From an uncultured Bacillota bacterium (GTDB taxonomy: Bacteria; Bacillota_I; Bacilli_A; RF39; UBA660), in the NCBI GenBank assembly GCA_900313725.1, contig OMSK01000099.1, positions 1-42,212 on the forward strand: a stretch of DNA of 42,212 nucleotides, read 5' to 3'. A program made the position numbers and the translations under genes. Below the pieces are notes generated by a model that worked only from the letters and a program-made list of their open reading frames with translations, did not search any database and was not told where the DNA came from. Below are positions 7,257 to 24,991 of this stretch, one piece after another (the first letter of the stretch is position 1; each line of letters opens with the position of its first letter).

Positions 7257-7311
7257 ATTTATCCCTCCTGAATGGTTATATATTATAGCATAAATTCAAA
7301 AAAAGTCAATT

Positions 7312-8126: not shown

Positions 8127-8185
8127 AAAACAACCTCCCTTTTTTATTGCCGTATATACTAACACAAACAGATGTTTTTGTCAAA

Positions 8186-9130: not shown

Positions 9131-9233
9131 TTTTTCCCTCCTTATGTTTTTTAGTCTTCTTTTCTATAACAACATATCATGGGAAATATTTAATGTCAAT
9201 ATTATTTACGAAATTTTGTTTGTTTTTTCTTTT

Positions 9234-9262
9234 TAAAAAAATAATAGGTTTTTCCTATTATT
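9234..9262 (-). terminator. Intrinsic terminator of the hybrid kinase gene
   Basis: AATAATAGG-TTTTT-CCTATTATT 9-bp stem overlapping the stop codon. U-run follows on the minus RNA. Confidence 0.6.
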
Positions 9263-11966: not shown

Positions 11967-12013
11967 ATTACACCCTCTTATTTTTTTATTCTTACCATAT
12001 ATATATAATATCA

Positions 12014-12045
12014 CAAAAAAAAAAGATAAACAATTGTTTATCTTT
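12014..12045 (-). terminator. Intrinsic terminator of the ANL gene
   Basis: Palindrome AAAGATAAACAATTGTTTATCTTT (12022-12045) overlapping the stop, followed by a U10 run on the minus RNA. Confidence 0.65.
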
Positions 12046-13780
12046 AAATTAAACGTTTTTTTCTATAATAAGCATAATTTTTTTTACCTGCACTTGTTCT
12101 TTGTATTTCGTCTTCAATATTAATTTCAATAGGTTTAGCAAATTCTTCAATCGAATTACACTTTTCATTAACTAGATTAATAATTTTTTCTCTCGATAAA
12201 TTACAATCACTCATTAACGAAATATAAGCAACACTTCTTGGTGTAGCAGATGCATCAGAAGGTACTATAATACAGTCTTCAATATAATCTACAGACGAAA
12301 TTACTTCTTCAACGTTACCTGCATATATTTTAACGAAATTACCTTTTCCATCATCTGTAATAAAATATTCTCTTATTCTTCCACCTAACTTAATAAGTCT
12401 TTTAAACTTTCCATGTACGGAACCATAAGTATCAGAAATAAACCATTTTTTACCATTTTCATCGGTAACGAAACTTTTATTTGTAGCTTCTTCATTATTA
12501 TAATATCCATCAGCTATTGTAGGCCCTGATAAACATAAAATTCCCTCTTTATCATTACCTAAATCTGCATGAGTTTTTGGATCAATTGCCTTTGCTTCAA
12601 TACCATTCATTAACATAAAGTAGTCATTTAATCCAAATTTTAATGCTGTTGCACTACCTAATTCTCCAAATCCAAATCCATCTATAAGTAATGGATCTGC
12701 ATCATGCTCATTTAAAAAATTTAATAATTTTTTCTTTTCTTCTGTTAAATAATGTTCTCCACCAGAAATAACATATTTTAAATATGATAATTTACCAACA
12801 TCTTTTGTATCTTCTATTATTTTATAAAAGTTTGGTATAGCTTGAATACGATCAACTTGATTTTCGTCTAACATATCCATAATTTTCTCATCTTTTGATT
12901 GTAATATTAATGTTTTACCCATTAAAAGAATCATAATTGTACTATTAATTGCGGCATAAGGATATTCATGTGAAACAACACCGACAACTTTTTCAGATTC
13001 ACAACTTTTAACATTAGTGGTTTTTGAAACAATTTTAACCATATTTGTATACACCTTATTTGATATCGAAATAGGTTTAGGTTCTCCACTTGAACCACTT
13101 GTATATAAAATCGAAGCTAAAGCATCTGGATCTTTACATGGTTCATATGAAAGATTACCAATATCACTTTTTTGGATATCATCCCACTCATGAACTTTTA
13201 CCCCTTTATTTTGGATTTTTTCAATTATCGATTTATCACATTTATCCATTAATATTATATCTTTAACTTTTGTATTATCAATAACTCTACTTACAATTTC
13301 AATATTATTTGAATCAGTAAACATTAGTTTTGAGTTAAAATTGTTAATGTTAAATTCCATTTTTTCTTCCTTAGAACCATTAAATATTCTTGAATTAGCT
13401 ATTCCTAACTTATTCATTGAGAAAAACGAAATAATTCCTTCACTACTACTATCTGAACATATAGAAGCTTTATCTCCTTTATTATATTCAATATTTTTAT
13501 AAATATAATCAGCTAATTTATCAACTTCAGTAAGCATTTCCATAAAAGTTATTGCTTTATCCTGTACTAATGCATTTTCATTTTGTATTTTTGGATGACT
13601 TAATACTAAATTTTTAAAGTAAATATATGGTGTTTCACCATTCTTCTTGATTAAAATTTTATGATGATTATTTTCTTTAACAAATTTATAATGTGAACCT
13701 AAATTTTTTAATGTCAATGCATATGTTATTAAATTACTAATTTTTTCATTATTCTTTTTAGATTTAACACTATTTACCAT
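12044..13780 (-). CDS. ANL-superfamily adenylate-forming enzyme (acyl/aryl-CoA ligase-like)
   Basis: AMP-binding core YTSGSSGEPKP, plus GYG/TGD-like downstream motifs and a C-terminal ..AGKKNY Lys. The start at 13780 has RBS AGAGGGG. The upstream ATG at 13816 lies inside the predicted promoter spacer. Confidence 0.85.
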   Translation of the reverse strand: MVNSVKSKKNNEKISNLITYALTLKNLGSHYKFVKENNHHKILIKKNGETPYIYFKNLVLSHPKIQNENALVQDKAITFMEMLTEVDKLADYIYKNIEYNKGDKASICSDSSSEGIISFFSMNKLGIANSRIFNGSKEEKMEFNINNFNSKLMFTDSNNIEIVSRVIDNTKVKDIILMDKCDKSIIEKIQNKGVKVHEWDDIQKSDIGNLSYEPCKDPDALASILYTSGSSGEPKPISISNKVYTNMVKIVSKTTNVKSCESEKVVGVVSHEYPYAAINSTIMILLMGKTLILQSKDEKIMDMLDENQVDRIQAIPNFYKIIEDTKDVGKLSYLKYVISGGEHYLTEEKKKLLNFLNEHDADPLLIDGFGFGELGSATALKFGLNDYFMLMNGIEAKAIDPKTHADLGNDKEGILCLSGPTIADGYYNNEEATNKSFVTDENGKKWFISDTYGSVHGKFKRLIKLGGRIREYFITDDGKGNFVKIYAGNVEEVISSVDYIEDCIIVPSDASATPRSVAYISLMSDCNLSREKIINLVNEKCNSIEEFAKPIEINIEDEIQRTSAGKKNYAYYRKKRLI

Positions 13781-13805
13781 AAATTCCCCTCTTTCAATGC
13801 CGTAT

Positions 13806-13833
13806 ATTATACACATTTTTTGTTATTTGTCAA
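13806..13833 (-). promoter_or_regulatory. Near-consensus sigma-A promoter for the ANL gene
   Basis: Minus strand TTGACA-16 nt-TATAAT, about 25 nt upstream of the 13780 start. Confidence 0.55.
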
Positions 13834-13865
13834 ATTTTTGTTTGCTTTTTATAAAAAAAAGAATT

Positions 13866-14504
13866 TTAGTTCTTCTTTTTTTTCTTTTCTCCTAATTTAT
13901 TATCTAAAAGTTGTACAATGTTTCCATATCCTAAGAAGAATACAAATGTTACTATCATATTTATAGTTACTTTACCTACTCCATAAGCTTCCATATCCAT
14001 AAAAGGATAAGGATAAGTTGCTCCATTTATAAATGTTCCTCCATTAGCTGTATAAATAACTACAAATAATTGATAAGCTATAAGCACAAAACTCCAAATT
14101 AGTGGATATTCTTTCTTTAAATGTCCTTTTTCTCCAAATATTATATAGTCAAATATTACTAAAAGGGGTACTACTATATGTACTATACTGCATTCTAATT
14201 GATGATTTTCAAATACAGAAGCTGCACTACTTGATGATATTAGCAAATTATATACTACCATAGTAAGAGTAATTGATATTGTTACCATACCTTTAATTAT
14301 ATAGTGCATATCACTATTCTTTGTTTTTTTAGTAATCATTAATATTACAAGTACTGTAAAATATATTAAGCATAATAAATTACTTAAATTAGTAAAATAT
14401 AATATTCCTTTTTCAAATGTTAAAAATTTAAAATTTAGATATAATCCTATAGCAGTTACTATAACAATTATAATTCTATATAATAATTTAATCTTTTCCT
14501 TCAT
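13866..14504 (-). CDS. Polytopic membrane protein, FAR-17a/AIG1-like (Pr6Pr-type)
   Basis: About 6 TM. YFTNLSN in TM2 and HIVVPLL in TM4 resemble the conserved Thr/His of the AIG1/ADTRP-like family. Called from memory of the motif only. The start at 14504 has RBS AGGGTG. Confidence 0.4.
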   Translation of the reverse strand: MKEKIKLLYRIIIVIVTAIGLYLNFKFLTFEKGILYFTNLSNLLCLIYFTVLVILMITKKTKNSDMHYIIKGMVTISITLTMVVYNLLISSSSAASVFENHQLECSIVHIVVPLLVIFDYIIFGEKGHLKKEYPLIWSFVLIAYQLFVVIYTANGGTFINGATYPYPFMDMEAYGVGKVTINMIVTFVFFLGYGNIVQLLDNKLGEKKKKKN

Positions 14505-14572
14505 ACTTATACACCCTATTATCATTATAAATCAATATTTTAAAAGGTCAATATTGTTTGTAAAGTGAGTGT

Positions 14573-14603
14573 AAAAAAAAGCTATATTTTTATAACTTTT
14601 TTC
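14573..14603 (-). terminator. Weak AU-rich intrinsic terminator ending cluster A
   Basis: Minus RNA AGUUAUA-AAAA-UAUAGCU (7 bp including one G-U) followed by U8, 13 nt after the NTase-NUDIX stop. Confidence 0.35.
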
Positions 14604-14615
14604 AGCATAAATAAT

Positions 14616-15806
14616 CTAAACCAATAATGAGGCTTTCTTTAAAACATCTTTTTGTTCATTATATGTAAGCATTTCTATTGCTTCTTCTAACAATAACCAC
14701 TTACCATCAACAAAATTTTCTGATATTTGAGGTCTTATTTTTTCCATTTTATCTATTTTAAATAAATATACTTTTATTTTTTTTTCATTTTCTTCAATAT
14801 CTGAAAAGTATCCATATTCACCTATTTTAGTAATAAAACTATGTTTATATAAACTTATATTAGTTTCCTCATATACTTCTCTAATTGCAGCTTCAATAAA
14901 TGTTTCATTCTTCTCTAAATGTCCTTTAGGTAAAACCCAGCAATTATTTATATCTTTTAAAACTGCAACATATTTTTTTCCTTTTAATTCACTTACAACT
15001 ACACCCATACAAGAAATGATTTTTTTGTTTTTTTCTTTTTTATTTTCTATCAATTTAACAATATTTTCAAACACAAATGTATTTATATCTAAAAATTGCT
15101 TAGTCGATTCAGATAATTTATGTTCACTTTTTAATACTTCTCTTATATTAAAATTCAATATTGATTTATCAAACATATTTTTTTCTTCACACAAATTACA
15201 AAAATCGTTAAATACATTTAAATAACCATATGAAAAAATTCCGTTTATATTTAAAATACATTTTAATAATACAACAAATTTTTTTATGTGATTTTTTGAT
15301 AATGAAATCTCATTATTACATAAAGAAATACAATTTCTTCTACAAGTATGAACAATACTAGGTAAATTATTTTTATCATTTTGCTGAATATCCAAATAAC
15401 TTTGTCTTAAAAAATAATTTTTACCATATAATGTTGGATCTAACCCAAGTTGTTCTTTTTCATATATCATTACCTTTGTTTTACTATCAATTAAATTATT
15501 TTTTACTTCATTTAAAGTATATATTGTGACTCCTATATGAATGTCGCAAGATTTATTTTTATTATCAATTATCATAAATTGTTTCACTTGATTAAAATCA
15601 TATTTATCTAAAACAATATATATATCTAAATCAGACCAAAGAGGTATTATTTCTGATTTACCACCAGAACCACCTAAAATAATACTTTTCAGATTTTTAT
15701 TAAATAATCGTTTTGCTAAATCTACTACTTCATCCAGTTTTACTTGATAATTATCAGGTAATCTAAGTGTAGAGTTATCAAAAACATGTTTATTCGATTT
15801 TGACAT
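14616..15806 (-). CDS. Pol-beta-fold nucleotidyltransferase domain fused to a NUDIX hydrolase domain
   Basis: N-terminus ILGGSGGKSEIIPLWSDLDIYIVL matches the G[SG]...DxD pattern of minimal NTases. C-terminus has the NUDIX box GHLEKNETFIEAAIREVYEETNI. RBS GGTGG lies before the ATG at 15806. Confidence 0.8.
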   Translation of the reverse strand: MSKSNKHVFDNSTLRLPDNYQVKLDEVVDLAKRLFNKNLKSIILGGSGGKSEIIPLWSDLDIYIVLDKYDFNQVKQFMIIDNKNKSCDIHIGVTIYTLNEVKNNLIDSKTKVMIYEKEQLGLDPTLYGKNYFLRQSYLDIQQNDKNNLPSIVHTCRRNCISLCNNEISLSKNHIKKFVVLLKCILNINGIFSYGYLNVFNDFCNLCEEKNMFDKSILNFNIREVLKSEHKLSESTKQFLDINTFVFENIVKLIENKKEKNKKIISCMGVVVSELKGKKYVAVLKDINNCWVLPKGHLEKNETFIEAAIREVYEETNISLYKHSFITKIGEYGYFSDIEENEKKIKVYLFKIDKMEKIRPQISENFVDGKWLLLEEAIEMLTYNEQKDVLKKASLLV

Positions 15807-16651
15807 TGTTCCACCACTTTCTTATAATCACTACTATTTTCAATATTTTTTTTGAAATTTTGAAATTTTATATTTAATCTATTAATAAAATAATTATAAT
15901 ATGTTTTTTTATCCTCATCACTAATGTTTTCTTCTGAAATTCTGTTTAATAAAAAAATGAATTGATCAATAAAGTCAGACATTCTAGTTATCTCCTTATT
16001 GAAACTATTTTCTAAGGTTATACTACCACTTCTTTTTATATAATTATATCCTATAAAAGGTATACTCCTAACAGTATGCGCTTTCATTATCAATAATGGA
16101 ATTAGTCCAAAATCCTCATGCGTTTTGTTTTCTAAAAAGAATAAATTATTATCAAAAAAAAGCTTTTTTTTAAAAAGATAACCCCATGGTGTAGCAAAAA
16201 TTTTTTGATGACTGCAAAATTTTCTAAGAACATCATTACCATTTTTTCGAGAAAATAGTTCTGATTCAAATCGTTCAGTACCATTACTACAGAAAAATCG
16301 AAATTTAATGATATCTTCATTATATTTAACTAATTCACTCAGTAAACCTTGATTTATATAATCATCTGAATCCACAAATAATATATATTCGCCAGAACTA
16401 TTTTGTACTCCAATATTTCGAGAAATACTCACTCCTTGATGACTATTTCTAATTATTTTAATTTTAACATCAATTTTAGTTTGAATATTTTCTATAATTA
16501 CTAAAGTATCATCTGTTGATCCATCATCGACAACAATAATCTCAAAATTTTTAAAATCTTGATTAATTATACTATTTAAACATTTTGAAATTGTAAATTG
16601 TGAATTAAATGTTGGAACAATAACTGAAATTTTTATGTTCTTTTTATACAT
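15740..16651 (-). CDS. Family 2 glycosyltransferase (GT-A)
   Basis: ISVIVPTFNS...EIIVVDDGSTDDT and VDSDDY (DxD). Paralogous to the N-terminal half of the 19403-20809 product. Confidence 0.9.
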   Translation of the reverse strand: MYKKNIKISVIVPTFNSQFTISKCLNSIINQDFKNFEIIVVDDGSTDDTLVIIENIQTKIDVKIKIIRNSHQGVSISRNIGVQNSSGEYILFVDSDDYINQGLLSELVKYNEDIIKFRFFCSNGTERFESELFSRKNGNDVLRKFCSHQKIFATPWGYLFKKKLFFDNNLFFLENKTHEDFGLIPLLIMKAHTVRSIPFIGYNYIKRSGSITLENSFNKEITRMSDFIDQFIFLLNRISEENISDEDKKTYYNYFINRLNIKFQNFKKNIENSSDYKKVVEQCQNRINMFLITLHLDYLIIIK

Positions 16652-17886
16652 TTAACTTTCACTTCTTTACTTTTAATATCATCACTGATTTCCGATAATT
16701 GATTTTTAAAATCTCCAACATTTCCATCATTATTTACAATATACGTAAATGGTGTATAAGAAGAATTATCATCAATAACTAATTCATTATTATAAATTGA
16801 TAATTTTTTTAAATTTAGCAAGCCAAATTTTTGTTTATTTCTATCTTTTTTTTCAACCATGTCAGCCACTTCATCTATTGTTATGCTTCGATTCTCTTTT
16901 AATTTCATATATTCACGATATACTCGATTATGATATGATGCTTCAATATAAATTAAATTTACATTATTTTTTAAAATTCTATATATACTCTTTATTGCAT
17001 CTATTCCATACAATGTGTCTAAAACAATAAATTCATTATCATAATGAGAAGAGCTAGTTAACAAAATAAAATCATACCAAAATCTATAAGAATCATTTTT
17101 TTCTTGCTCTTTCATCCACAGATGCTTTTCTAAATTTGAGCCAGAAGATAAATACATCTCATTTAATATATCTCTCATTTTTACATGAACTGAATTTGGT
17201 AAAAGATGTGTCAAATATTCAGAAGCAGTGCTTTTTCCAGATTCGGATACACCAGAAATAAAAATAAATTTTTGATTTTTATTAATGATGCTATCAATTA
17301 TTTTATTAAATACATTATTAATATCATCAACAGCATTTATAATTTGAATATTAGATTTTTTTATCATTTTTTTTGTGACATCATTTAATACTATTTGATA
17401 ATTATGATAATAATCATCATATGAATTAATTTTTGAATCATTTCTTTGTCGTAATCTTTCATTTAGCTTAGTTGTATCATCAATATTAAGAAATAATGAT
17501 AAGTTTTCACTATTTATTCCATATTTCTTCTTTGACATATTTATTTGATTATATATATCAAGATTATTGTATCCTCTCATAAGAAAATTAGCTAAAATAC
17601 GGCAATCAAAAGTAAAAACACCTTTATCATTAATAATTAACTGTTTTTCTTTTTTTATTGCTTCATCATCTCTATATTTTATTCCTCTATAAATTGTGTC
17701 ACAAAATTCTTCAAGTTTACTATCCAAAAACCACCATTTAAAAAAATCATCACCCCTTAAATTTGGAAAAATATTATAATAGCCTATATCATTTGAAAAA
17801 TAACCATAGGGAAAGCGATCCTTCAGTAATTTATATTGCGTTGTTTTGCCACTTCCATCTAAACCATTTAATGATATTTTATACAT
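16633..17886 (-). CDS. Tandem P-loop kinase (thymidylate-kinase-like module plus a second nucleoside/nucleotide-kinase-like module)
   Basis: Walker A 1, LNGLDGSGKTTQ, matches the GxDGxGKTTQ signature of dTMP kinases. Walker A 2, ISGVSESGKSTASEY, lies about 200 aa downstream. RBS AAGGAG. Confidence 0.7.
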   Translation of the reverse strand: MYKISLNGLDGSGKTTQYKLLKDRFPYGYFSNDIGYYNIFPNLRGDDFFKWWFLDSKLEEFCDTIYRGIKYRDDEAIKKEKQLIINDKGVFTFDCRILANFLMRGYNNLDIYNQINMSKKKYGINSENLSLFLNIDDTTKLNERLRQRNDSKINSYDDYYHNYQIVLNDVTKKMIKKSNIQIINAVDDINNVFNKIIDSIINKNQKFIFISGVSESGKSTASEYLTHLLPNSVHVKMRDILNEMYLSSGSNLEKHLWMKEQEKNDSYRFWYDFILLTSSSHYDNEFIVLDTLYGIDAIKSIYRILKNNVNLIYIEASYHNRVYREYMKLKENRSITIDEVADMVEKKDRNKQKFGLLNLKKLSIYNNELVIDDNSSYTPFTYIVNNDGNVGDFKNQLSEISDDIKSKEVKVKCIKRT

Positions 17887-18317
17887 TTTGTTATCTCCTT
17901 ATTATTACCATATTCCATAATAATTTTATCTCTTATTTCATGAGGCACTATATTTAATCCAGACATTTCGTTAATAGGTATTTCAATTGGAATATATAAT
18001 CCTCTATCTTTGTATTCATCAGAACTAAATTCTGGTCCATTTCCGGTTCCAAATGTTCCAGATATCCACTTACATTTGAAAAAATATGTTTTAGTATCTT
18101 TAAAATCTTCAATATATTTCATTTCCTCAACATCTACATTTATTCCTAATTCTTCAAGAACTTCTCTTTTTACTCCTTGTTCTAATATTTCATCTTCTTC
18201 TAAGCCACCACCTGGAAAAACATAATATATATTTTCTTTATTTCCATCAAATCTAACTCTTTTAATCAACAAAACTTTATTATCATGAATTACTATTCCA
18301 CGTACTCTTACATTCAT
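17868..18317 (-). CDS. NUDIX hydrolase
   Basis: NUDIX box GGGLEEDEILEQGVKREVLEELGI. RBS GAGGAGG. Confidence 0.9.
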   Translation of the reverse strand: MNVRVRGIVIHDNKVLLIKRVRFDGNKENIYYVFPGGGLEEDEILEQGVKREVLEELGINVDVEEMKYIEDFKDTKTYFFKCKWISGTFGTGNGPEFSSDEYKDRGLYIPIEIPINEMSGLNIVPHEIRDKIIMEYGNNKEITKCIKYH

Positions 18318-18321
18318 ATTT

Positions 18322-19413
18322 TTACCTCCTCAATTCATCTAAATTATCTATTAAATAATGTAAGTTATTATAATTATTATTTTTTAATTTATTATAAAAA
18401 TAATGAACTAAAAATATAATATAATAATAATCATCTTTATCAAATTTAGATATATTAAATATACACATTAAACGCATTACAATAAAATATATCAAATCAT
18501 CATATATATCAAAATCTTTAATAATTTCCAAAAATTTTAAAATATATTGTTTTCTAATACTAGTTACTTCTAAATAACCGTTAATTTCTATTAAATTACC
18601 ATTTCTATAATTAATTTTAGGTTTATAGTATTTATTTTTTTTACAAATTTCATCATGATTATAAAATGATTTTGGATGATATTTTGGACAAATATACTGA
18701 TCAAATATTAATATGGAAACAAGACATATTGCAAATTCACCTATCGCATAATTATATCCTAATAAACTTATATCAAAAAAATATGGTGTCGTTGAAATGT
18801 TTAAAGAATTATGATCACCTTGAGTTACAAAACATAAATGTTGCTTATTTTTTTGAAAATATTTTTTTGTTTCTTCTAAAATTTCACTTGTCGAAATACT
18901 TTGATAGCCATTAATTACTACTTTCTTGTTGAATTGTTTTTCATTATCATACCAATTAATTAATCTTGAATTTATCCTATCTTTAAAGAATGCATCTATA
19001 GGTGACATATCATTCCAAATTCTTTTTTTAGAGCTTTCATTATAAATAGATAAAATTTTATTCATTTTATTTTCATTATAGTTCATTTTAAAGTCATTCT
19101 TCACAAAATAATCATTTAATAATCCATCATTATTTTTTATTCCTAAATCATATTCATATATGATTAAGTATAAATCATTTTTTATATGATATGAATTCAA
19201 ATGTTTCTTTATTGGAAAAACTTTTGAATACAAATTAATTGCTTTCTCTTCCTTTATCATTTCCTGATTAGAAATAATTTTAAAGAATCTTTTTTTATTT
19301 TTTTCAAATAAAATACCATTAATAGAATTGTTTTGACAATTAATATTTTTTATTATAATATCTGGTGTAATACTATTTATTTCTTCCAATAATTTATTAA
19401 TATTATAATTCAT
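18322..19413 (-). CDS. APH/choline-kinase-fold phosphotransferase-like protein (divergent)
   Basis: FFKII (beta3 Lys) ...EEKAINLY (alphaC Glu). Catalytic-loop-like QGDHNSLN (Dx4N, with His of HxD replaced by Gln). FFDISLLGYNYAIGEFA resembles the metal-binding D...E/D segment. Confidence 0.55.
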   Translation of the reverse strand: MNYNINKLLEEINSITPDIIIKNINCQNNSINGILFEKNKKRFFKIISNQEMIKEEKAINLYSKVFPIKKHLNSYHIKNDLYLIIYEYDLGIKNNDGLLNDYFVKNDFKMNYNENKMNKILSIYNESSKKRIWNDMSPIDAFFKDRINSRLINWYDNEKQFNKKVVINGYQSISTSEILEETKKYFQKNKQHLCFVTQGDHNSLNISTTPYFFDISLLGYNYAIGEFAICLVSILIFDQYICPKYHPKSFYNHDEICKKNKYYKPKINYRNGNLIEINGYLEVTSIRKQYILKFLEIIKDFDIYDDLIYFIVMRLMCIFNISKFDKDDYYYIIFLVHYFYNKLKNNNYNNLHYLIDNLDELRR

Positions 19414-20809
19414 TTTTTATTCTAATCTCATCTATTATTTTAAAAATTTTTTCTGTTCTATCACCAGACATATCATAATAATCTAAATTATTCTTTTTAC
19501 AATATTTTTTTATTTGCTTAGAATTATTTATAACTAATTCACAATAATCCAACAATTCACTATTTGACAAGCTATTTGTCCAATCATTCTCCGTATCATT
19601 AGTTCTTATATCATTATACAATTGTTGCGGAGTGCCATCATAACCCAATATAATAATTATAAATTTATCCTTATTAAATTGTGCTAAAAATCTATCCATA
19701 TCTAAATAACAACCCTCTATAACATAATTTATATCAATAGTACGTTTAGTAATATGATTTAATGATCTTATATAGCTTGTGATAAATCCAGATACTTCAT
19801 CTAATAATTGAGAATTTCTACGATTATGATTAATATTTAATTCTGGCATTCCAAATTGAAATGCTGTAATAATCGAATCCAATGATATCATATTATAATT
19901 AAACTTATGTGAGATTTTTCTAGCCAACGTGCTTTTTCCAGATCTACTACAACCATATATTATTATATTTTTTCTTATTTTCATTTCTTTTTTTATGTCA
20001 TAAATACTGGATAATAATTTAGTAGTATATTTAGAAATTTTTTTTACATAAAACAAATAAAAATCTTTTTTATATTTTGTTTTTTCTCTTATAGCATACT
20101 CCATCAATCTGCGTACTACGTCATAGTAGCAGTAAACATTAAATAGATTTACTGAACCAGTTATTGAATTTTTACGTAATCGATAATTATAATATGGTTT
20201 ATCAATATAATACAAATTTTTTATACTACAAAGAAGTTTAATAACCCACTCTTCGTCCTCATGAACAATACCTTCTATAAAAAACAATTTATTTTTTAAA
20301 ATTATATCTCTTTTTACAATAAAACGCCATACTGTAAAAATAATTTTACTTTGTTTAATATAATTTAGTACTTCATTCATCTTTTTGTTATTTATTCTAG
20401 TATAATCTATTTCTCTATCATATAAATCTCTGGCATCATCTTCTCTTATAGTTTTGAAATTTGAGATATATGTTTCTTTTTTTGTTTTTTCAATTACATG
20501 AAAAATATAATTTAAACTATCTATATCAATATAATCATCACTATCTAAAAATAATATGTATTCCCCGTTAGAATTGTTTATACCTATATTTCTAGCTGCT
20601 GATACACCAACATGTTCTGTGCAGAATACTTTTATGTTATTATATTTCTTACAATATTCATTACATATAGTCCTAGTTTTATCTGTTGATCCATCATCAA
20701 CAACAATTATTTCAAAATCATTATAATCTTGATTTACAAGACTATCTAAACATTCAGAAATATATTTTTCTACATTATAAGCAGGTATAATAATTGAAAA
20801 TTTACTCAT
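19403..20809 (-). CDS. GT2 glycosyltransferase fused to a C-terminal P-loop kinase-like domain
   Basis: FSIIIPAYNV..EIIVVDDGSTDKT, LDSDDY and HEDEEW (GT2). After about 280 aa, Walker A IIIYGCSRSGKSTLARKI with a small adenylate/gluconate-kinase-like alpha/beta region. Confidence 0.85.
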   Translation of the reverse strand: MSKFSIIIPAYNVEKYISECLDSLVNQDYNDFEIIVVDDGSTDKTRTICNEYCKKYNNIKVFCTEHVGVSAARNIGINNSNGEYILFLDSDDYIDIDSLNYIFHVIEKTKKETYISNFKTIREDDARDLYDREIDYTRINNKKMNEVLNYIKQSKIIFTVWRFIVKRDIILKNKLFFIEGIVHEDEEWVIKLLCSIKNLYYIDKPYYNYRLRKNSITGSVNLFNVYCYYDVVRRLMEYAIREKTKYKKDFYLFYVKKISKYTTKLLSSIYDIKKEMKIRKNIIIYGCSRSGKSTLARKISHKFNYNMISLDSIITAFQFGMPELNINHNRRNSQLLDEVSGFITSYIRSLNHITKRTIDINYVIEGCYLDMDRFLAQFNKDKFIIIILGYDGTPQQLYNDIRTNDTENDWTNSLSNSELLDYCELVINNSKQIKKYCKKNNLDYYDMSGDRTEKIFKIIDEIRIKNEL

Positions 20810-20831
20810 ATATATTTCCTCTTTCCTTTAA

Positions 20832-20872
20832 CAAAAAAAGTGCAAAACACCCCTTGGATGTTAATTGCACTT
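20832..20872 (-). terminator. Terminator-like hairpin inside the 5' leader of cluster A (candidate attenuator)
   Basis: Minus RNA AAGUGCAA..(ACAUCC-aag-GGGUGU inner helix)..UUGCACUU followed by U7. It ends only about 22 nt before the cluster A start codon, so cluster A transcription must read through it. Confidence 0.5.
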
Positions 20873-20917
20873 ATTAACTTCAAAAAAAATGCTGGTTTTT
20901 AATAATTTAATAAACAT
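20861..20917 (-). CDS. Candidate leader peptide MFIKLLKTSIFFEVNKCN (18 aa)
   Basis: RBS GGTGA lies 5 nt before the ATG. The last three sense codons and the UAA stop overlap the 5' arm of the 20832-20872 hairpin. Short ORFs arise by chance fairly often, so this is tentative. Confidence 0.3.
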   Translation of the reverse strand: MFIKLLKTSIFFEVNKCN

Positions 20918-20947
20918 ACCTATCACCAAACCCTAAATACAGTATAT

Positions 20948-20975
20948 ATTCTAACATAAAATTATTAATTGTCAA
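20948..20975 (-). promoter_or_regulatory. Candidate sigma-A promoter for the cluster A leader
   Basis: Minus strand TTGACA-16 nt-TAGAAT with TGt immediately upstream (extended -10 pattern), about 140 nt upstream of the GT2-kinase start. Confidence 0.5.
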
Positions 20976-20992
20976 TATAAAAGTTGTACTTT

Positions 20993-21511
20993 TTACAACT
21001 TTATCTCATCTATTATGTTTTTATTTATATCATATAAAGTGAATTTATGATTTTCATATATTAAATAACTGGGTTTACTATTACCTCTAGGAAGTGATAT
21101 TGAACCAACACAAATATAAATCATATCATCGTTCTTTTTGATATATGGTATGTGTTCATGTCCGTATATAAGTATTCCATTATTAAATTTTTTATTTTTA
21201 GAATAACTATATAAATGACCATGAGTTAAATATAGTTTTTTATTATCAACATCTAATTCTACTAAATCTGGTGTTGATGTATTTATTAATTTCACAATAA
21301 AATCTGAATCACAATTACCTCTAGTTATTATTAGTTTATTTAAATATTTATTTAAAAATTCAATAACATCTATACTATCATGATAAGAATAATAACTACA
21401 TAAATCACCTAATACAACTATTCTATCAAAGTTATTTTGTCTTTCTAATTCTTCTATATATTTTAAATTATCAATTTTACCATGTATATCTGAAAAGAAT
21501 AATATTTTCAT
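20993..21511 (-). CDS. YfcE/MJ0936-family metallophosphoesterase
   Basis: Motifs DIHG, GDLC, GNCD, THGH and GHEH in canonical order; 172 aa. Confidence 0.88.
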   Translation of the reverse strand: MKILFFSDIHGKIDNLKYIEELERQNNFDRIVVLGDLCSYYSYHDSIDVIEFLNKYLNKLIITRGNCDSDFIVKLINTSTPDLVELDVDNKKLYLTHGHLYSYSKNKKFNNGILIYGHEHIPYIKKNDDMIYICVGSISLPRGNSKPSYLIYENHKFTLYDINKNIIDEIKL

Positions 21512-21569
21512 ATTATCACCATTTAAATTATATCATTTTACATAATAAAAAGATACAATTATTATAATT

Positions 21570-21597
21570 AAAAGGGGTACAAATTGTACCCCTTTTA
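21570..21597. terminator. Bidirectional intrinsic terminator downstream of trpS
   Basis: AAAAGGGGTACA-A-TGTACCCCTTTT: a GC-anchored perfect stem flanked by A4 and T4 runs. Confidence 0.8.
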
Positions 21598-21617
21598 ATA
21601 TTTTTTCCTAACTAAGT

Positions 21618-21677
21618 TATCGACAAATTGTCGATATCATAATTTTCTTAATTATTTTAGGTTATATACAATTTGTA
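21618..21677. repeat. Two further palindromes sharing the ACAAATTGT core of the terminator stem
   Basis: TATCGACAAATTGTCGATA (21618-21636) and TACAATTTGTA (21667-21677). Together with GTACAAATTGTAC in the terminator, the centres are at about 21583, 21627 and 21672 (44-45 bp apart). Confidence 0.6.
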
Positions 21678-21707
21678 CATACCCTTATGTTTTCATATTT
21701 TTATGTA

Positions 21708-22703
21708 TTAATTATCATATTTTATTCCCATTTTTTCTCTTACTTCAAGTAATTTTTTAGAAGCTACTTTTTCTGCTTCAATAGCTCCATTATGTAGTAT
21801 TTTAATTAATTCATCATTATATCTATATTTTTTATATTTTTCTTGTATAGGTAATATAAATTTTTCTAATAAATCAGCTAAATCTTTCTTAAATGTACCA
21901 TAATTAGAATCTTTATATTTATCTTCTATATCTTTTATACTTTTATTTGTAATTGATGCATAAATAGATATTAAATTAGATATACCCGGCTTTTTTTCTT
22001 CATCAAAATATATTTTATTTTCACTATCTGTTACTGCACTCATTATCTTCTTTTTAGAATTATTAATATCATCTAATATAAATATTGTTCCTTTATCATT
22101 TATCGGAGATGATTTTGACATTTTTTCATTAGGATTTTGTAAATTCATTATTTTATGACCTATCTCTGGCACATAATAATCTGGTAATTTAAACATATCA
22201 CCATATCTTTTATTCATTCTCTCTCCTATATCTCTAGTTATTTCTATATGTTGTTTTTGATCAGATCCAACTGGTACTATTTCAGCATCATATAAAAGTA
22301 TATCAGCTGCCATTAAGGTTGGATAAATAAGTAGCCCTAAATCTATTCCATCTTTACCTTGTTTTTCTTTCTTTGATTTATATTGTGTCATTCTTGATAA
22401 TTCTCCTACTCGGCATTGAAATGCGACTAAAAATCCTAATACACTATGTTCATTAACATCACTTTGTACAAAGAAATTAGTATATTTTGGATCTACTCCA
22501 CAAGCTAAATAAGTTGCGGCTAAATCTAGAATTGTATCATGAATTTTTTTAGGTTCTTGATATGAAGTTAAACCGTGTAAATCCGCTATAAATATAAATG
22601 AATTATGTTCTTTTTGTAATTTAACAAAGTTTTTAATTGCTCCTAAATAATTACCTAATGTAAAATTTCCTGTAGGTTGAACACCAGTAATCATTGTTTT
22701 CAT
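21708..22703 (-). CDS. trpS: Tryptophanyl-tRNA synthetase
   Basis: 331 aa with the class I HIGH-region variant TGNFTLGNYLG, KMSKS present, and a typical TrpRS N-terminus GVQPTG. Confidence 0.95.
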   Translation of the reverse strand: MKTMITGVQPTGNFTLGNYLGAIKNFVKLQKEHNSFIFIADLHGLTSYQEPKKIHDTILDLAATYLACGVDPKYTNFFVQSDVNEHSVLGFLVAFQCRVGELSRMTQYKSKKEKQGKDGIDLGLLIYPTLMAADILLYDAEIVPVGSDQKQHIEITRDIGERMNKRYGDMFKLPDYYVPEIGHKIMNLQNPNEKMSKSSPINDKGTIFILDDINNSKKKIMSAVTDSENKIYFDEEKKPGISNLISIYASITNKSIKDIEDKYKDSNYGTFKKDLADLLEKFILPIQEKYKKYRYNDELIKILHNGAIEAEKVASKKLLEVREKMGIKYDN

Positions 22704-22717
22704 TTTGATCCTTCTTT

Positions 22718-23743
22718 CTAATTATAATATTCCATTATTTTTTTATATAAATCTTTTGTTTTTTCTAATGAATCTATTAATATGTATTCATTTTTTTGAT
22801 GTGATGTATCAGGACCTGGTCCAAGTATTATAAAGTTTTTATCAATAAATGATCCTTCTGTCACATAACATCTTGTTTCTTTTTTTGATGAAATATTCTC
22901 TAAAAAATCTATATTACTATTATTTAGTTTAGGTTTTATATTTACACATATAGTTAATTTAGAATCATATTTTTTTAATATACTTTTTATTTTATTTATA
23001 ATTTCATCTAAATGTTTTTCTTTAACTATTCTAAAATCCATGCTTATTTCACATTTACCCGCAAGAGAATTAATAGTTTCTCCACCCTTAATCATACCAA
23101 TATTCATAGTAGTATAAGGTATTTCAAAGTCTTCTACTTTATCTTTTTTTAATTCTTCATAATAATCTTTTATTTCATTAATAAATTTGATACATTCATC
23201 AATTGCGCTTATACCCTTATCTGGTGTTGAAGAGTGACATTTTATTCCATAGAATTCTATTTGTAATCCTAAAGCTCCTTTTGTTCCATATACAGGTATA
23301 TTATTAGTAGGTTCACATACAATAATATTATTAGATTTTACTCTATCTTTAATTGTTTTTATTCCTTCAAATCCTATTTCTTCATCATTAGTAAAATATA
23401 GTGATATTTTATTCTTAGTTAAATCTACTTCTGATATAGCTTTTAATATAGAAGCTAATCCACCTTTCATATCACAAGCACCTAATCCAATTAACATGTT
23501 ATCTATTTCTACTAATTCAAATGGATTTCCATCCCATGATTCATAATCAACTGTATCAGTGTGTCCCATAAAACCTATATTAGTATTCTTACTATTATAA
23601 GCTATTAGACATTTATCAATTCTTTCTATAGTAAAATTATAATCTTTTAAATATTTTTCAATATAATCCATTATTTCTTTATTTTGTTCATCTTTAATTG
23701 TATTATAACTAACCAATTTTTTTAATATTTCTTTTGTTTCCAT
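22718..23743 (-). CDS. M20-family metallopeptidase/deacylase (ArgE/DapE-like)
   Basis: GHTDTV, ACDMKGG, NDEEIG and EPT motifs; 341 aa. Only 14 nt upstream of trpS, so probably co-transcribed. Confidence 0.85.
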   Translation of the reverse strand: METKEILKKLVSYNTIKDEQNKEIMDYIEKYLKDYNFTIERIDKCLIAYNSKNTNIGFMGHTDTVDYESWDGNPFELVEIDNMLIGLGACDMKGGLASILKAISEVDLTKNKISLYFTNDEEIGFEGIKTIKDRVKSNNIIVCEPTNNIPVYGTKGALGLQIEFYGIKCHSSTPDKGISAIDECIKFINEIKDYYEELKKDKVEDFEIPYTTMNIGMIKGGETINSLAGKCEISMDFRIVKEKHLDEIINKIKSILKKYDSKLTICVNIKPKLNNSNIDFLENISSKKETRCYVTEGSFIDKNFIILGPGPDTSHQKNEYILIDSLEKTKDLYKKIMEYYN

Positions 23744-23776
23744 AATAATCTCCTTTCATCATATAATTTGCTTATA

Positions 23777-23810
23777 CAAAAAAAGAATACAGATTTACCT
23801 GTATTCTTTA
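23777..23810 (-). terminator. Intrinsic terminator inside the leader of the M20-trpS operon (attenuator)
   Basis: Minus RNA AAAGAAUACAG-GUAAAU-CUGUAUUCUUU followed by Us. It ends about 35 nt before the M20 start codon. Confidence 0.7.
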
Positions 23811-23872
23811 TATTTATATTTTATTCATACAGGTATAAGCAATACTAAAACCACTTATACCCATAACGATTT

Positions 23873-23932
23873 TTATCGCTTTGTATAAGTGTTACCTATA
23901 TGACGCCAAGTTCTAATAATTAAATTTTTCAT
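23873..23932 (-). CDS. Candidate Trp-containing leader peptide MKNLIIRTWRHIGNTYTKR (19 aa)
   Basis: RBS AAAGGAAG lies 8 nt before the ATG. There is one UGG codon (codon 9). Codons 15-17 form the first segment of a chain of mutually exclusive hairpins leading to the terminator. Confidence 0.4.
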   Translation of the reverse strand: MKNLIIRTWRHIGNTYTKR

Positions 23933-23978
23933 ATAAATAACTTCCTTTCTTATCTAAATATTAACATAAATATTTATA

Positions 23979-24404: not shown

Positions 24405-24421
24405 AATTTTTCCTCCACTTA

Positions 24422-24979: not shown

Positions 24980-24991
24980 TGTTTCACCTCA

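Follow-up and report, generated by a model that had tools for sequence, protein, structure and literature searches.

A conserved, undescribed six-gene enzyme cassette in uncultured gut Bacillota, with a possible role in sugar activation and transfer

What might be accomplished by six tightly packed genes, in an uncultured and very AT-rich gut bacterium, that encode two GT2 glycosyltransferases, four kinase domains, two NUDIX hydrolases and a Pol-beta nucleotidyltransferase (NTase)? We analysed these genes, designated A to F in transcription order, within a window comprising the whole 42-kb stretch of DNA examined (Table 1). No description of this gene combination was found in PADLOC, NCBIfam or the literature, as the original prediction had supposed.

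Table 1. Positions of genes, domains and flanking signals in the window.
Feature	Position	Strand	Length	Basis
Gene A	19403-20809	-	468 aa	
Gene A, N-terminal GT2, residues 1-270	20000-20809	-		PF00535 E 6e-37; DSD at residue 89
Gene A, C-terminal P-loop NMP-kinase-like domain, residues 271-468	19403-19999	-		Walker A GCSRSGKS, residue 286
Gene B, APH-fold small-molecule kinase, unnamed family, module marker	18322-19413	-	363 aa	AlphaFold model and Foldseek
Gene C, stand-alone NUDIX hydrolase	17868-18317	-	149 aa	PF00293 E 4e-14; intact Nudix box GGLEEDEILEQGVKREVLEE
Gene D	16633-17886	-	417 aa	
Gene D, N-terminal thymidylate-kinase-like P-loop, residues 1-200	17287-17886	-		GLDGSGKTTQ at residues 8-17
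Gene D, C-terminal AdkA/UPF0200-like P-loop kinase, residues 201-417, core component	16633-17286	-		AAA_18
Gene E, second GT2	15740-16651	-	303 aa	PF00535 E 1e-32; DSD at residue 94
Gene F	14616-15806	-	396 aa	
Gene F, N-terminal Pol-beta NTase and helical domain, residues 1-262, ANT(9)-like	15021-15806	-		Profile and model
Gene F, C-terminal NUDIX, residues 263-396, Ap4A-hydrolase-like	14616-15020	-		PF00293 E 5e-14; Nudix box intact
Promoter-like site TTGACA-16-TAGAAT with TG extension, upstream of operon	20948-20975	-		Consensus match only (scan, 11/12 matches), of a kind common in AT-rich DNA here
Leader hairpin then U7, terminator/attenuator-like, about 25 nt before start codon	20833-20870	-		RNA fold
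Hairpin and U8 past gene F, A/U-only stem, possible terminator	14573-14603	-		Fold, z = -1.3
Promoter-like site of the gene following F	14524-14551			

A coupled operon and its relatives

The ORF listing reproduced the predicted coordinates and junctions exactly, with successive minus-strand genes joined by an 11-nt overlap, a 4-nt gap, and overlaps of 19, 19 and 67 nt. Junctions of -11, -19, -19 and -64/-67 recur in two relatives (L008 and L009) at a protein identity of about 55-65%. The operon had also been described as bracketed by a leader hairpin and a weak terminator. The leader hairpin exists (z = -2.2 when a 140-nt leader is folded) and the terminator is indeed weak, failing a scan for G+C-rich terminators, but none of the four nearest relatives (L002, L007, L008 and L009) keeps the leader hairpin ahead of its orthologous operon, and the leader matches no Rfam family.

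The module was found in some 35 loci, every one of them from uncultured Bacillota of the gut. Its parts belong together, because gene order and overlaps are conserved among related loci and because domains are fused in pairs across them (GT2-NTase, GT2-kinase, NTase-NUDIX, TMPK-NTase, kinase-NUDIX and HAD-kinase), in agreement with the prediction of a single unit. The constant core consists of a kinase, a nucleotidyltransferase, a NUDIX hydrolase and a nucleotide-kinase-like protein. Both predicted GT2s are present in the window, but architectures II, V and VI lack a GT2, placing glycosyl transfer outside the invariant core. The module travels as a unit between different genomic contexts, and near-identical elements exchange sub-cassettes. 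Large serine recombinases lie close by in eight of 30 loci, and in four of these an XRE regulator and a TnpV-like protein are also encoded upstream; one locus (L010) bears GNAT and methyltransferase cargo, and genes for a HelD-like helicase and an ABC-F protein recur nearby.

Enzyme families encoded by the cassette

All nine predicted domain assignments hold at superfamily level, the GT2s and NUDIX hydrolases passing Pfam thresholds, and the catalytic motifs are intact. The two GT2s share 39% identity over 217 aa and are therefore paralogues, as proposed, and both look active from their retained DxD motifs. The nearest solved structures are GalT1 (5hea), 3bcv, K4CP and TarS for the gene A domain, which also matches NCBIfam PRK10073 (E 1e-38, under that model's cutoff), and TarS and GalT1 for gene E. 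The gene E type always lies directly upstream of the NTase (as adjacent genes in L039/L040) or is fused to it (L006, L011, L012 and L014), and the GT2-P-loop fusion of gene A recurs in L002-L004 and L007-L009. The ENA annotation of the source contig has no gene call for E.

Three P-loop domains, all NMP-kinase-like and one of them thymidylate-kinase-like, are encoded by genes A and D. The C-terminal domains of both proteins keep an intact Walker A motif and have adenylate-kinase-like matches, which for gene A comprise weak AAA_18 and cytidylate-kinase matches together with adenylate-kinase-like 'DNA topology modulation protein' models. The gene D C-terminus (Walker A GVSESGKS) scores 40.3 bits against AAA_18, above the cutoff of 29.4, matches 3lw7 and 3h0k in the PDB, and occurs in types I, II and IV, either by itself or as part of a fusion. 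At the gene D N-terminus the predicted dTMP-kinase signature is present, alongside a conserved WWF insertion, and the family profile matches thymidylate kinases in the PDB over the full length (E 3e-6). However, dTMP specificity is not implied, since the TIGR00041 score of 36.9 bits falls far under the cutoff of 83, and the domain is thus TMPK-like and not a dTMP kinase equivalog. A TMPK-like-NTase fusion is found in L028 and L029.

Gene C has orthologues in nearly all related loci. The NUDIX domain of gene F is nearest in structure to the Aquifex Ap4A hydrolase 3i7u (32% identity, TM 0.80), followed by C. elegans and human Ap4A hydrolases and MutT1.

Gene B has no sequence match in Pfam, NCBIfam or the PDB. 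Its AF2 model (pLDDT 86) matches APH(3'), amicoumacin kinase (AmiN), APH(4), MTR kinase (MtnK) and NahK at a Foldseek probability of 1.0, with residues K45, E55, D200, N205 and D214 invariant or nearly so across a family of 299 representatives (E <= 1e-3), in agreement with the predicted APH/ChoK fold. Judged from this model, B looks like a sugar kinase, its fold being common to the anomeric and sugar kinases NahK and MtnK and to the APHs; APH(3') enzymes rank equal to sugar kinases in structural score. Among viral proteins, Bacillus phage G gp311 matches it best in structure (E 3.6e-7, TM 0.57), a likeness without sequence similarity. B is fused to NUDIX in P0090 and P0110 and to an HAD domain of the pyrimidine-5'-nucleotidase (UMPH-1) family in P0163, P0184 and L031, and a distant homologue adjoins an NDP-sugar-epimerase-type SDR and a GT.

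The predicted NTase-NUDIX fusion in gene F also stood. The NTase of the window has no Pfam match; its family profile matches minimal (MNT-type) nucleotidyltransferases (E 6e-4), and its model matches the spectinomycin adenylyltransferase ANT(9) 6sxj (E 1.6e-7, 269 columns). Invariant residues are G46, S47, S58, D59, D61, E100, K109, T110, H153, R157, K175 and K182, which include the classical GS/DxD motif (GS-x10-SDxD).

Five of the six proteins have no transmembrane segment (Kyte-Doolittle, 19-residue window), and the single short hydrophobic stretch in kinase B (maximum 1.77) falls within a core helix of the modelled kinase fold, in line with the prediction of six proteins without membrane spans. 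The further proposal of a soluble substrate does not follow from this or from the lack of an exporter. TarS, TarP, GalT1 and chondroitin synthase, the closest solved relatives of the cassette GT2s, are cytoplasmic enzymes that lack transmembrane segments and decorate polymers or proteins. The nearness of the GT2s to TarS, TarP and GalT1 suggests that the acceptor is as likely a cell-envelope polymer or protein as a soluble molecule.

Sugar activation and transfer weighed against other readings

The evidence favours, at slightly less than even odds (about 0.45), a self-contained cassette of the cytoplasm in which a sugar, or a sugar-like alcohol, is activated with a nucleotide and then transferred to an acceptor, which corresponds to the kinase, NTase and GT route with NUDIX control in the original prediction. 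From the observed folds, conserved catalytic motifs, co-conservation, fusions and mobility, we infer all substrates and the step order as follows. Kinase B would phosphorylate the sugar, with the anomeric position as the most likely site, and the ANT-like NTase of gene F would join the sugar phosphate with NMP from an NTP to give an NDP-sugar, from which the GT2s of genes E and A would pass the sugar to the acceptor. The three NMP-kinase-like domains may re-phosphorylate the released NMP and NDP to NTP, and the two NUDIX hydrolases may cut NDP-X or nucleoside polyphosphate that is in surplus or aberrant.

The GT2-NTase fusion, together with the constant placement of the GT2 directly before the NTase, argues that the GT2 takes up what the NTase makes. 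HldE/GmhB, NahK/GalT and phage AfhE/AfhF are known examples of the same kinase, nucleotidyltransferase and transferase logic. HldE/GmhB proceeds from sugar-P through sugar-1,x-bisP to sugar-1-P, a route matched by the HAD-B fusions and by the histidine phosphatases of types II and IV. Phage AfhE/AfhF uses this route as well (PMC13326640). The phage G operon of gp311, which B resembles in structure, has a kinase-HAD-RmlA-like-glucosyltransferase composition, gp311 being followed by an HAD phosphatase and an RmlA-type sugar-1-P nucleotidyltransferase, with two DNA alpha-glucosyltransferases flanking. The accessory genes of variants (SDR, lactonase, xylose-isomerase-like TIM barrel and PfkB-SIS) are sugar-chemistry enzymes. 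A 246-aa protein of types III and VI weakly matches the mannose-6-phosphate isomerase C-terminal model, and because this match is sub-threshold its cupin assignment is a lead only.

Several observations count against this reading. We know of no Pol-beta/ANT-fold enzyme that makes NDP-sugars; the sugar-1-P nucleotidyltransferases known to us all have the RmlA/GlmU-type fold, of which the six-gene cassette contains none. The missing GT2 of three architectures, the likeness of the fused NUDIX to Ap4A hydrolases and MutT1 instead of NDP-sugar hydrolases, the UMPH-1 type of the HAD on B, the lack of sequence support for gp311 and the equal APH(3') scores weigh in the same direction. Most bacteria, moreover, need no dedicated NMP/NDP kinases for canonical carriers.

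In phages, dedicated NMP/NDP kinases mark non-canonical nucleotides, and the main rival reading, which is unlikely, has the cassette acting on a nucleoside or nucleotide of a non-canonical kind. An unusual nucleoside would be raised to its triphosphate by B (or HAD-B) together with the TMPK-like and AdkA-like kinases, and the NTase would consume this triphosphate by adding it to RNA, a small molecule or a protein; sanitising would fall to NUDIX and histidine phosphatase, and tailoring to GT2 and SDR. This could yield an antiviral or antibiotic nucleotide analogue, a signal or a nucleic-acid modification, or detoxify such a compound. This would fit an invariant core in which GT2 is dispensable, the nucleotide-directed kinases, NUDIX and 5'-nucleotidase, the pairing of NUDIX with histidine phosphatase as in MutT1, and the mobility and sub-cassette swapping typical of conflict systems. 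Pathways for base hypermodification in phages rely on much the same set of enzymes (PMC13326640). A protein of ~200 aa bearing NDK-like motifs (IIKPD...NxxH) sits at the place of the P-loop kinases in types III and VI, and type II has a 379-aa protein with a HIT-like motif, but both calls are motif-based and hhalign comparisons were not significant. Also against this reading, the accessory enzymes are sugar-phosphate enzymes, and no variant whose genes were examined encodes a base-making enzyme, a base-attaching one (phosphoribosyltransferase or nucleoside phosphorylase) or a thymidylate-synthase-like base modifier. The effectors, nucleases and sensors typical of defence systems are lacking, PADLOC gave no meaningful match, and no relatives turned up in IMG/VR or among phage and plasmid records. 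The evidence speaks neither for nor against phage defence, which the original prediction also raised.

LicA/LicD- or fukutin-style phospho-alcohol decoration, also raised in the original prediction, appears improbable. Here B, with its ChoK/APH fold, would phosphorylate an alcohol or polyol, perhaps one made by the variant SDRs, for activation as a CDP- or NDP-alcohol, and the NTase-fold protein would act as phosphotransferase onto a glycan built by GT2s that resemble teichoic-acid glycosyltransferases. LicD, fukutin and FKRP are indeed NTase-fold phosphotransferases. However, there is no LicD (PF04991) match and no LicC-type cytidylyltransferase, the NTase keeps its classical motif and an ANT(9)-like two-domain architecture, and the nucleotide-kinase-like and NUDIX core is left unexplained.

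We consider it distinctly improbable that the cassette is an antibiotic- or toxin-inactivation island on transposon-like elements, modifying an incoming aminoglycoside- or nucleoside-type compound by APH-like phosphorylation, ANT-like nucleotidylation and GT2 glycosylation. The best solved matches of B and the F N-terminus (APH(3'), AmiN, APH(4) and ANT(9)), the recombinases, the cargo of L010 and the HelD-like and ABC-F neighbours are consistent with it. Resistance determinants, though, are normally single enzymes, whereas translational coupling of six to eight genes, some of them fused, points to a pathway; inactivation has no use for the NUDIXes or for three NMP-kinase-like domains, and no resistance family shows detectable sequence similarity.

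It is very improbable that the operon is one piece of an ordinary capsule, teichoic-acid or EPS locus whose primer and exporter genes lie elsewhere, despite GT2s of polysaccharide/teichoic-acid type and a GT4, P-loop and ATP-grasp trio 8 kb from the operon, given that the module moves as a unit and that no priming transferase, Wzx, Wzy, polymerase, ABC exporter pair or ligase was found in the window, in the surrounding contig or beside the module in other loci with flanks examined; no characterised capsule, teichoic-acid or lipoglycan locus was found as a home for the operon.

The six genes are thus a real, conserved and undescribed enzyme cassette. Under the favoured reading of sugar activation and transfer, these steps would be carried out by enzyme families never shown to perform them.

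Gene layout and enzyme domains

The six genes, here called A to F in order of transcription, appeared in an ORF listing of the window with exactly the coordinates and overlaps that the original prediction had claimed. Genes A and B overlap by 11 nt, B and C lie 4 nt apart, and the remaining three junctions are overlaps of 19, 19 and 67 nt. The same junctions occur in the orthologous operons of two related loci (L008 and L009), whose proteins are about 55-65% identical, indicating that the overlaps have been conserved rather than produced by ORF calling. G+C content is about 22% across the window, and the cluster shows no compositional break. The ENA annotation of the source contig lacks gene E, and the exact sequence of this gene is on record in only 3 Logan contigs, while its neighbours are on 32-36; gene callers probably skip it owing to the overlaps at both of its ends, and its Pfam match and orthologues identify it as a real gene. 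None of the six proteins has a name in the source records.

A promoter-like sequence (TTGACA-16-TAGAAT) and a leader hairpin followed by U7 accompany the operon, an A/U-only hairpin followed by U8 lies 3' of F, and the next two genes beyond the operon have promoter-like sites of their own. A riboswitch in the leader was rejected after an Rfam scan at E <= 10 returned only noise, and the idea of a conserved regulatory leader was abandoned because the element is absent from the four nearest relatives. The L21 ribosomal-protein leader (RF00559, 51 bits), upstream of L21/Prp/L27, was the sole Rfam family above threshold in the window, where no tRNA genes were found.

Positions of the operon genes, flanking signals and other features discussed in the text
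Locus	Feature	Position	Strand
Window	Gene A, GT2-kinase	19403-20809	minus
Window	Gene B, APH-fold kinase	18322-19413	minus
Window	Gene C, NUDIX	17868-18317	minus
Window	Gene D, TMPK-like and AdkA-like	16633-17886	minus
Window	Gene E, second GT2	15740-16651	minus
Window	Gene F, NTase-NUDIX	14616-15806	minus
Window	Promoter-like sequence	20948-20975	minus
Window	Leader hairpin and U7	20833-20870	minus
Window	A/U-only hairpin and U8	14573-14603	minus
Window	L21 leader	891-958	minus
Window	Fic/RhuM-domain protein	8186-9130	minus
Window	Hybrid histidine kinase	9258-12014	minus
Window	AMP-binding ligase	12044-13816	
Window	NUDIX and Ham1	23979-24979	
Window	HelD-type helicase	25968-28151	minus
Window	Overlapping trio	28218-32041	minus
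Window	ABC-F protein	36600-38222	
Window	GNAT/NUDIX array	38249-42185	minus
L036	GNAT/NUDIX array, past the window	2295-9974	
L005	379-aa protein	3319-4458	
L006	~200-aa protein	1961-2563	
L011	~200-aa protein	11038-11673	
L031	~200-aa protein	9393-9992	
L033	~200-aa protein	9676-10296	
L039	~200-aa protein	8998-9597	
L011	HelD-type helicase	13765-15957	
L039	HelD-type helicase	11757-13955	
L020	Transposon-like element	2676-6536	
L022	Transposon-like element	11022-14347	
L032	Kinase B-NUDIX fusion	1088-2656	
L041	Phage G operon region	18188-25141	

Domain calls bore out, at superfamily level, the predicted inventory of two GT2, four kinase, two NUDIX and one Pol-beta NTase domains. The GT2 domains matched PF00535 with 127.6 bits in A (residues 5-149) and 113.4 bits in E (residues 9-113; cutoff 23.3), both have a DSD motif (at residue 89 of A and 94 of E) preceded by DDGSTD, and their 39% identity marks them as paralogues. 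We accepted NUDIX domains on a Nudix box (GX5EX7REUXEEXGU) together with a PF00293 match above the cutoff of 21.1 bits; C and F scored 53.1 and 52.9 bits (F at residues 281-384), with an intact box in C (GGLEEDEILEQGVKREVLEELGI) and one in F (GHLEKNETFIEAAIREVYEETNI) that is intact with its final G replaced by N. The F domain shares 32% of its residues with the Ap4A hydrolase of Aquifex (TM 0.80); Ap4A hydrolases of C. elegans and human and the mycobacterial MutT1 come next among its matches. A hydropathy scan found no transmembrane segment in five of the six proteins, and the one short hydrophobic stretch of B (maximum 1.77) falls within a modelled core helix of its kinase fold.

Residues 1-200 of D carry GLDGSGKTTQ, and the family profile (A7) aligned with thymidylate kinases over their full length and in both halves (E 3e-6), whereas against the dTMP kinase equivalog Tmk (TIGR00041) D scored 36.9 bits, below the cutoff of 83.25, with the P-loop alone aligned. 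As regards the DR[YFH] motif, two residues of the D family are invariant: D87, within DKG, and R96, within F-[DE]-x-R, a stretch that aligns with the TMPK DRF region at a one-residue offset. Residues 201-417 of D match AAA_18 above cutoff and are nearest to archaeal AdkA-like/UPF0200 proteins, and residues 271-468 of A have a Walker A motif and weak adenylate/cytidylate-kinase-like matches.

For the nucleotidyltransferase we used the Pol-beta criterion of G[GS]-x9-13-[DE]h[DE]h with a third carboxylate. Residues 1-262 of F contain an invariant GS-x10-SDxD (G46, S47 ... S58, D59, x, D61), with E100 (invariant) and D107 (nearly invariant) as candidates for the third acid, and also keep K109, T110, H153, R157, K175 and K182. 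F itself has no match to Pfam NTP_transf_2; a relative in L031 (261 aa) scores 21.3 bits against the cutoff of 21, and another relative, P0036, carries a precomputed PF01909 assignment. The NTase profile found MNT-type nucleotidyltransferases in the PDB (E 6e-4). Structures were predicted for two proteins, F and B. The F model (pLDDT 81) has helices at 137-253 after the NTase core and matched the ANT(9) spectinomycin adenylyltransferase 6sxj over 269 columns (Foldseek E 1.6e-7, TM 0.52 by target, 15% identity).

Kinase B had no match at E <= 0.1 in Pfam, where it falls outside APH (PF01636) and Choline_kinase, or in NCBIfam, nor any in PADLOC or PDB sequences, even when a 13-member profile was compared with the PDB, and on the lack of Pfam, NCBIfam and PDB matches we treat it as a separate, unnamed family. 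Its AlphaFold (AF2) model (pLDDT 86, pTM 0.84) shows a bilobal kinase fold, for which Foldseek returned APH(3')-IIIa/Ia, the amicoumacin kinase AmiN, APH(4), the methylthioribose kinase MtnK and the N-acetylhexosamine 1-kinase NahK at probability 1.0 with TM scores of only 0.35-0.5. K45, E55, QGD200xNxxN205 and FFD214 are invariant or nearly so across the 13 aligned members and are the full catalytic set of the APH/ChoK fold, with putative residue roles (D-x4-N catalytic loop, metal-binding D, beta3 Lys and alphaC Glu pair) assigned by analogy. A full HMMER scan with the B profile gave 299 representatives at E <= 1e-3. One contig (L032) carries a 522-aa kinase B-NUDIX fusion with a sulfotransferase and a TFIIS-type zinc-ribbon protein, which hints that the B family may extend beyond Bacillota, into archaeal, eukaryotic or giant-virus DNA.

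Module architectures and mobility

We found that the operon is one version of a module recurring around kinase B. A word-indexed search of 5.8 billion proteins returned few relatives: B had 13 clusters, F about 27 and D 7. A scan of one genome per species gave 24 loci, all in MAGs of uncultured Bacilli or Clostridia that came from chicken, rabbit and human guts. One of these bearers, Candidatus Coprosoma, belongs to the GTDB order RF39 (PMC8035907). The window has its own match in a gut-metagenome contig of 157 kb. ORFs of 30 loci were labelled by BLAST against the window domains and unknowns were scanned with Pfam, revealing a constant core of B, a Pol-beta NTase, a NUDIX and a nucleotide-kinase-like protein, with GT2 outside this invariant core.

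Gene order in the six module architectures
Type	Loci	Genes
I	Window, L002-L004, L007-L009	GT2-kinase, B, (SDR), NUDIX, TMPK-like-AdkA-like, GT2, NTase-NUDIX
II	11 loci	(SDR), B, NTase, unknown 379 aa, unknown 270 aa fused to AdkA-like, (His-phosphatase), NUDIX
III	L006, L011, L012, L014; unfused in L039/L040	SDR, B, ~200-aa protein, GT2-NTase, NUDIX
IV	5 loci	(SDR), B, NUDIX, TMPK-like, NUDIX, AdkA-like, NTase, GT2
V	L028, L029	Extended B, TMPK-like-NTase, TMPK, NTP_transf_5, CMK-like, PPDK-like
VI	L031, L033	SDR, HAD(UMPH-1)-B, ~200-aa protein, NTase, NUDIX; TIM-barrel isomerase or PfkB-SIS nearby

Other loci add B-NUDIX and HAD-B fusions, and the pairwise fusions are strong evidence that the module proteins act in one pathway. 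Besides B, the NTase, D and several variant-specific proteins belong to unnamed families. The 379-aa protein of type II, aligned with nine orthologues (alignment A4), has an invariant HCxxC and an invariant NQISKSQLCIHGHIE, which resemble the GalT/HIT zinc site and HxH nucleotide-transfer motif; it had no Pfam or PDB match, and hhalign against E. coli GalT was not significant (probability 0.07%). The 270-aa unknown of type II showed no relation to the B family by hhalign. In types III and VI a protein of about 200 aa stands in place of the P-loop kinases; its N-terminal IIKPD and C-terminal FNxxH recall nucleoside diphosphate kinase, it has no Pfam match, and hhalign against E. coli Ndk aligned the IIKPD motif alone (E 0.044). 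We regard the NDK-like and HIT-like assignments as sequence-based, motif-level leads and not as findings.

Flanking genes differ among most loci. Genes for a YfcE-like phosphodiesterase, a Pr6Pr membrane protein, an AMP-binding ligase and a hybrid histidine kinase mark one chromosomal neighbourhood in which the module is of type I in the window but of type II in L005, L026 and L027. Large serine recombinases lie within about 7 kb of the module in eight loci, with a TnpV-like protein and an XRE regulator also upstream in L010, L020, L022 and L023. The transposon-like elements of L020 and L022 share DNA that is 96-98% identical on both sides, including TnpV, the regulator, the whole of gene B, the last NUDIX and both serine recombinases, and between the shared stretches carry non-homologous module genes, type IV versus type II. 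This replacement indicates that the module is mobile and that its sub-cassettes are exchanged. A phage or plasmid origin was rejected, as searches of IMG/VR, GenBank phages and PLSDB plasmids turned up no relative of either B or the NTase.

The AMP-binding ligase, Pr6Pr membrane protein and hybrid histidine kinase were considered as module parts, as they recur near the module in five loci, and were set aside as syntenic neighbours because their positions shift, they have promoter-like sites of their own and they flank different module types. The histidine kinase (902-918 aa, two receiver domains) lies downstream of the cluster, as does a Fic/RhuM-domain protein, and it and the ligase recur in varying order near the module in L026, L027 and L033. 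A HelD-type UvrD-like helicase directly follows the last module NUDIX in L006, L011, L012, L014, L039 and L040, with an ABC-F gene next in L039 and L040; the window homologue, 39% identical to that of L011, lies 5 kb upstream of the module. Upstream of this helicase, a second set of overlapping genes encodes a GT4-type glycosyltransferase of 679/706 aa (Glyco_transf_4 and Glycos_transf_1), an AAA_18 P-loop kinase-like protein of 212 aa and an ATP-grasp_3 protein of 365 aa, another glycosyltransferase and P-loop kinase unit without an exporter. Farther along, an array of four small GNAT, three NUDIX and two GATase/Peptidase_C26 genes runs on past the window and ends at an ABC-F protein; together with the NUDIX and Ham1 genes elsewhere in the window, this makes enzymes of house-cleaning or small-molecule modification unusually numerous in the region.

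Proposed function

We infer, with a probability of about 0.45, that the operon activates a sugar with a nucleotide and then transfers the glycosyl group. Kinase B would phosphorylate the sugar, the NTase would nucleotidylate it and a GT2 would transfer it. The NUDIX proteins would keep the pool of activated sugar in check, a role that WcaH plays in colanic-acid loci. The NMP-kinase-like domains, one of them fused to a GT2, would recycle the NMP and NDP released by GT2 and NUDIX, a benefit where a mobile cassette resides in a reduced genome. This reading is favoured by the fold of B, which is that of anomeric sugar kinases and has its best viral match in gp311, the first gene of a phage G operon with a sugar-1-phosphate NTase (see below), and by the NTase and E-type GT2, which are always adjacent, overlapping or fused, as expected if the product of one is the substrate of the other. 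It is also favoured by the accessory genes of the variants (SDR, lactonase, TIM-barrel isomerase and PfkB-SIS), which encode enzymes of sugar chemistry; a possible cupin among them is a sub-threshold match only. No base-attaching or base-modifying enzyme was found in any variant examined. The nearest solved structures of the GT2s are TarS, TarP, GalT1 and chondroitin synthase, suggesting that the acceptor may be an envelope polymer or a protein; the soluble substrate originally predicted from the absence of transmembrane segments does not follow from that absence.

The weakest points of the sugar-activation reading are the missing precedent for its NTase step, the place of GT2 outside the core and the nucleotide-handling parts, which look like more than recycling. 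Neither the operon nor its variants contain an RmlA/GlmU-fold sugar-1-phosphate nucleotidyltransferase (PF00483), the Pol-beta-fold NTase being the only one present, and we know of no Pol-beta-fold enzyme that makes NDP-sugars. The missing precedent and the dispensable GT2 instead suit synthesis of a non-canonical nucleotide, built up to the triphosphate for use by the NTase and kept in check by NUDIX, possibly as an antiviral or antibiotic agent or for nucleic-acid modification. The TMPK-like kinase, the Ap4A-hydrolase/MutT1-like NUDIX, the UMPH-1-type HAD and the motif-level NDK-like and HIT-like proteins also speak for this alternative, the main rival, which we consider unlikely. LicD-style phospho-alcohol transfer is quite improbable, since neither F nor any NTase homologue scanned matched LicD (PF04991).

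Known systems and significance

The ADP-heptose route (GmhA/HldE/GmhB/HldD) reaches an NDP-sugar through a bisphosphate. In the phage UDP-arabinose route (AfhE/AfhF; DLP3 gp81-83, RB69 gp51-55), an APH-like kinase, HAD phosphatase, NTase, glycosyltransferases and TMPK-like kinase occur together (PMC13326640). The module and these bisphosphate routes have in common the logic of anomeric kinase, phosphatase, nucleotidyltransferase, epimerase/SDR and glycosyltransferases: module variants add a HAD or histidine phosphatase, an SDR and an isomerase-type TIM barrel, and both the HAD-B fusions and the histidine phosphatases fit a bisphosphate route. However, the module NTase has a Pol-beta/ANT fold in place of the RmlA/MurU/HldE fold, its glycosyltransferases are GT2 (GT-A) and not GT-B, and it has integral NUDIX and up to three NMP-kinase-like domains with no base-modifying enzyme. 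Its setting is bacterial, chromosomal or transposon-like, in contrast to a phage genome, and the window version lacks a phosphatase.

Among viral models the best match of B was gp311 of Bacillus phage G (JN638751; E 3.6e-7, TM 0.57), a structural match in the kinase fold, although hhalign found no sequence similarity between gp311 and the B family. Unannotated and with no Pfam domain, gp311 forms an operon with the HAD phosphatase gp310 and the RmlA-like sugar-1-phosphate NTase gp309, flanked by the AGT-family DNA alpha-glucosyltransferases gp306 and gp313. The phage operon thus differs from the module in its RmlA-type NTase and AGT-family glycosyltransferases, and the function of gp311 is only predicted. 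The structure match and gene context of the phage operon suggest an unreported sugar-activation pathway for DNA glycosylation.

In the NahK-GalT-GalE (LNB/GNB) and AmgK-MurU pathways an APH-fold kinase makes a sugar 1-phosphate, the substrate of a subsequent nucleotidylation. The structural matches of B include NahK, but these pathways use GalT- or MurU-type transferases, feed central metabolism and lack dedicated GT2, NUDIX and NMP kinases. An antibiotic-inactivation island would account for APH(3')/APH(4) and ANT(9)/ANT(3'') being the best solved matches of B and the F N-terminus, with catalytic motifs in common; we consider it very unlikely, as the likeness is at fold level only (7-14% identity, TM 0.35-0.5), no window protein matches Pfam APH or NTP_transf_2, and the operon is a multi-step pathway.

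Colanic-acid-type loci have a NUDIX, WcaH/Gmm (GDP-mannose mannosyl hydrolase), amid GT2s that controls the NDP-sugar pool, and carry ManB/ManC, Gmd/Fcl, WcaJ and Wzx/Wzy/Wza-c. The module likewise has a NUDIX inside a glycosyltransferase cluster; unlike these loci, it lacks the other genes, and its NUDIXes are nearer to Ap4A hydrolases. Pfam assignments along the source contig, covering about 20 kb to either side, include no priming phosphotransferase, flippase/ABC exporter or polymerase/ligase, and none of these genes adjoins the module in those related loci for which flanking genes were inspected. That the operon is a fragment of an ordinary polysaccharide locus is therefore barely credible, there being no exporter, primer or polymerase in the window or the surrounding contig.

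PADLOC-DB 2.0 gave no system-defining match, with hits only to a generic NUDIX (PDC-S07, 1e-12) and to P-loop/NTase-core models at E 1e-4 to 1e-5. For a CBASS CD-NTase, the PADLOC cyclase model matched over 60 residues only (E 1.4e-4), CdnD in the PDB gave E 0.11, and no effector gene was found. The prediction that the gene combination is undescribed stands: we found no defence model, curated family or published description matching the module.

The module is thus real, conserved and undescribed, with unprecedented enzyme families, dense fusions and mobile cassette-swapping. It works like known kinase/phosphatase/NTase/GT pathways, but the NTase fold sets it apart, and the NUDIX and NMP-kinase modules are additions that those pathways lack. 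Every domain comes from a known superfamily, making a variant of familiar logic the most economical reading, and we give a modest but genuine probability to a new chemistry or biological role. Tentatively, and against the odds, the Pol-beta/ANT-fold NTase and unnamed APH-fold kinase could constitute a new way of making a nucleotide-activated sugar or a glycosylated nucleotide, encoded by mobile elements of gut Bacillota that swap cassettes, with a product that serves conflict, either as surface variation against phages or as antiviral/antibiotic glyco-nucleotide or nucleic-acid modification.

If the kinase-NTase-GT2 reading is true, sugar-1-phosphate nucleotidylation was invented a second time, on the Pol-beta fold, and an unnamed kinase family of about 300 members gains a function. 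The fused GT2-kinase, GT2-NTase and NTase-NUDIX proteins could serve as one-pot glycosylation biocatalysts with nucleotide recycling. Mobility and sub-cassette swapping between near-identical elements suggest diversifying selection, which makes the module a candidate for a role in phage-host or microbe-microbe conflict. In the guts of animals and humans, uncultured Bacillota of the RF39 type may owe a surface glycan or a secreted glyco-nucleotide to the module.
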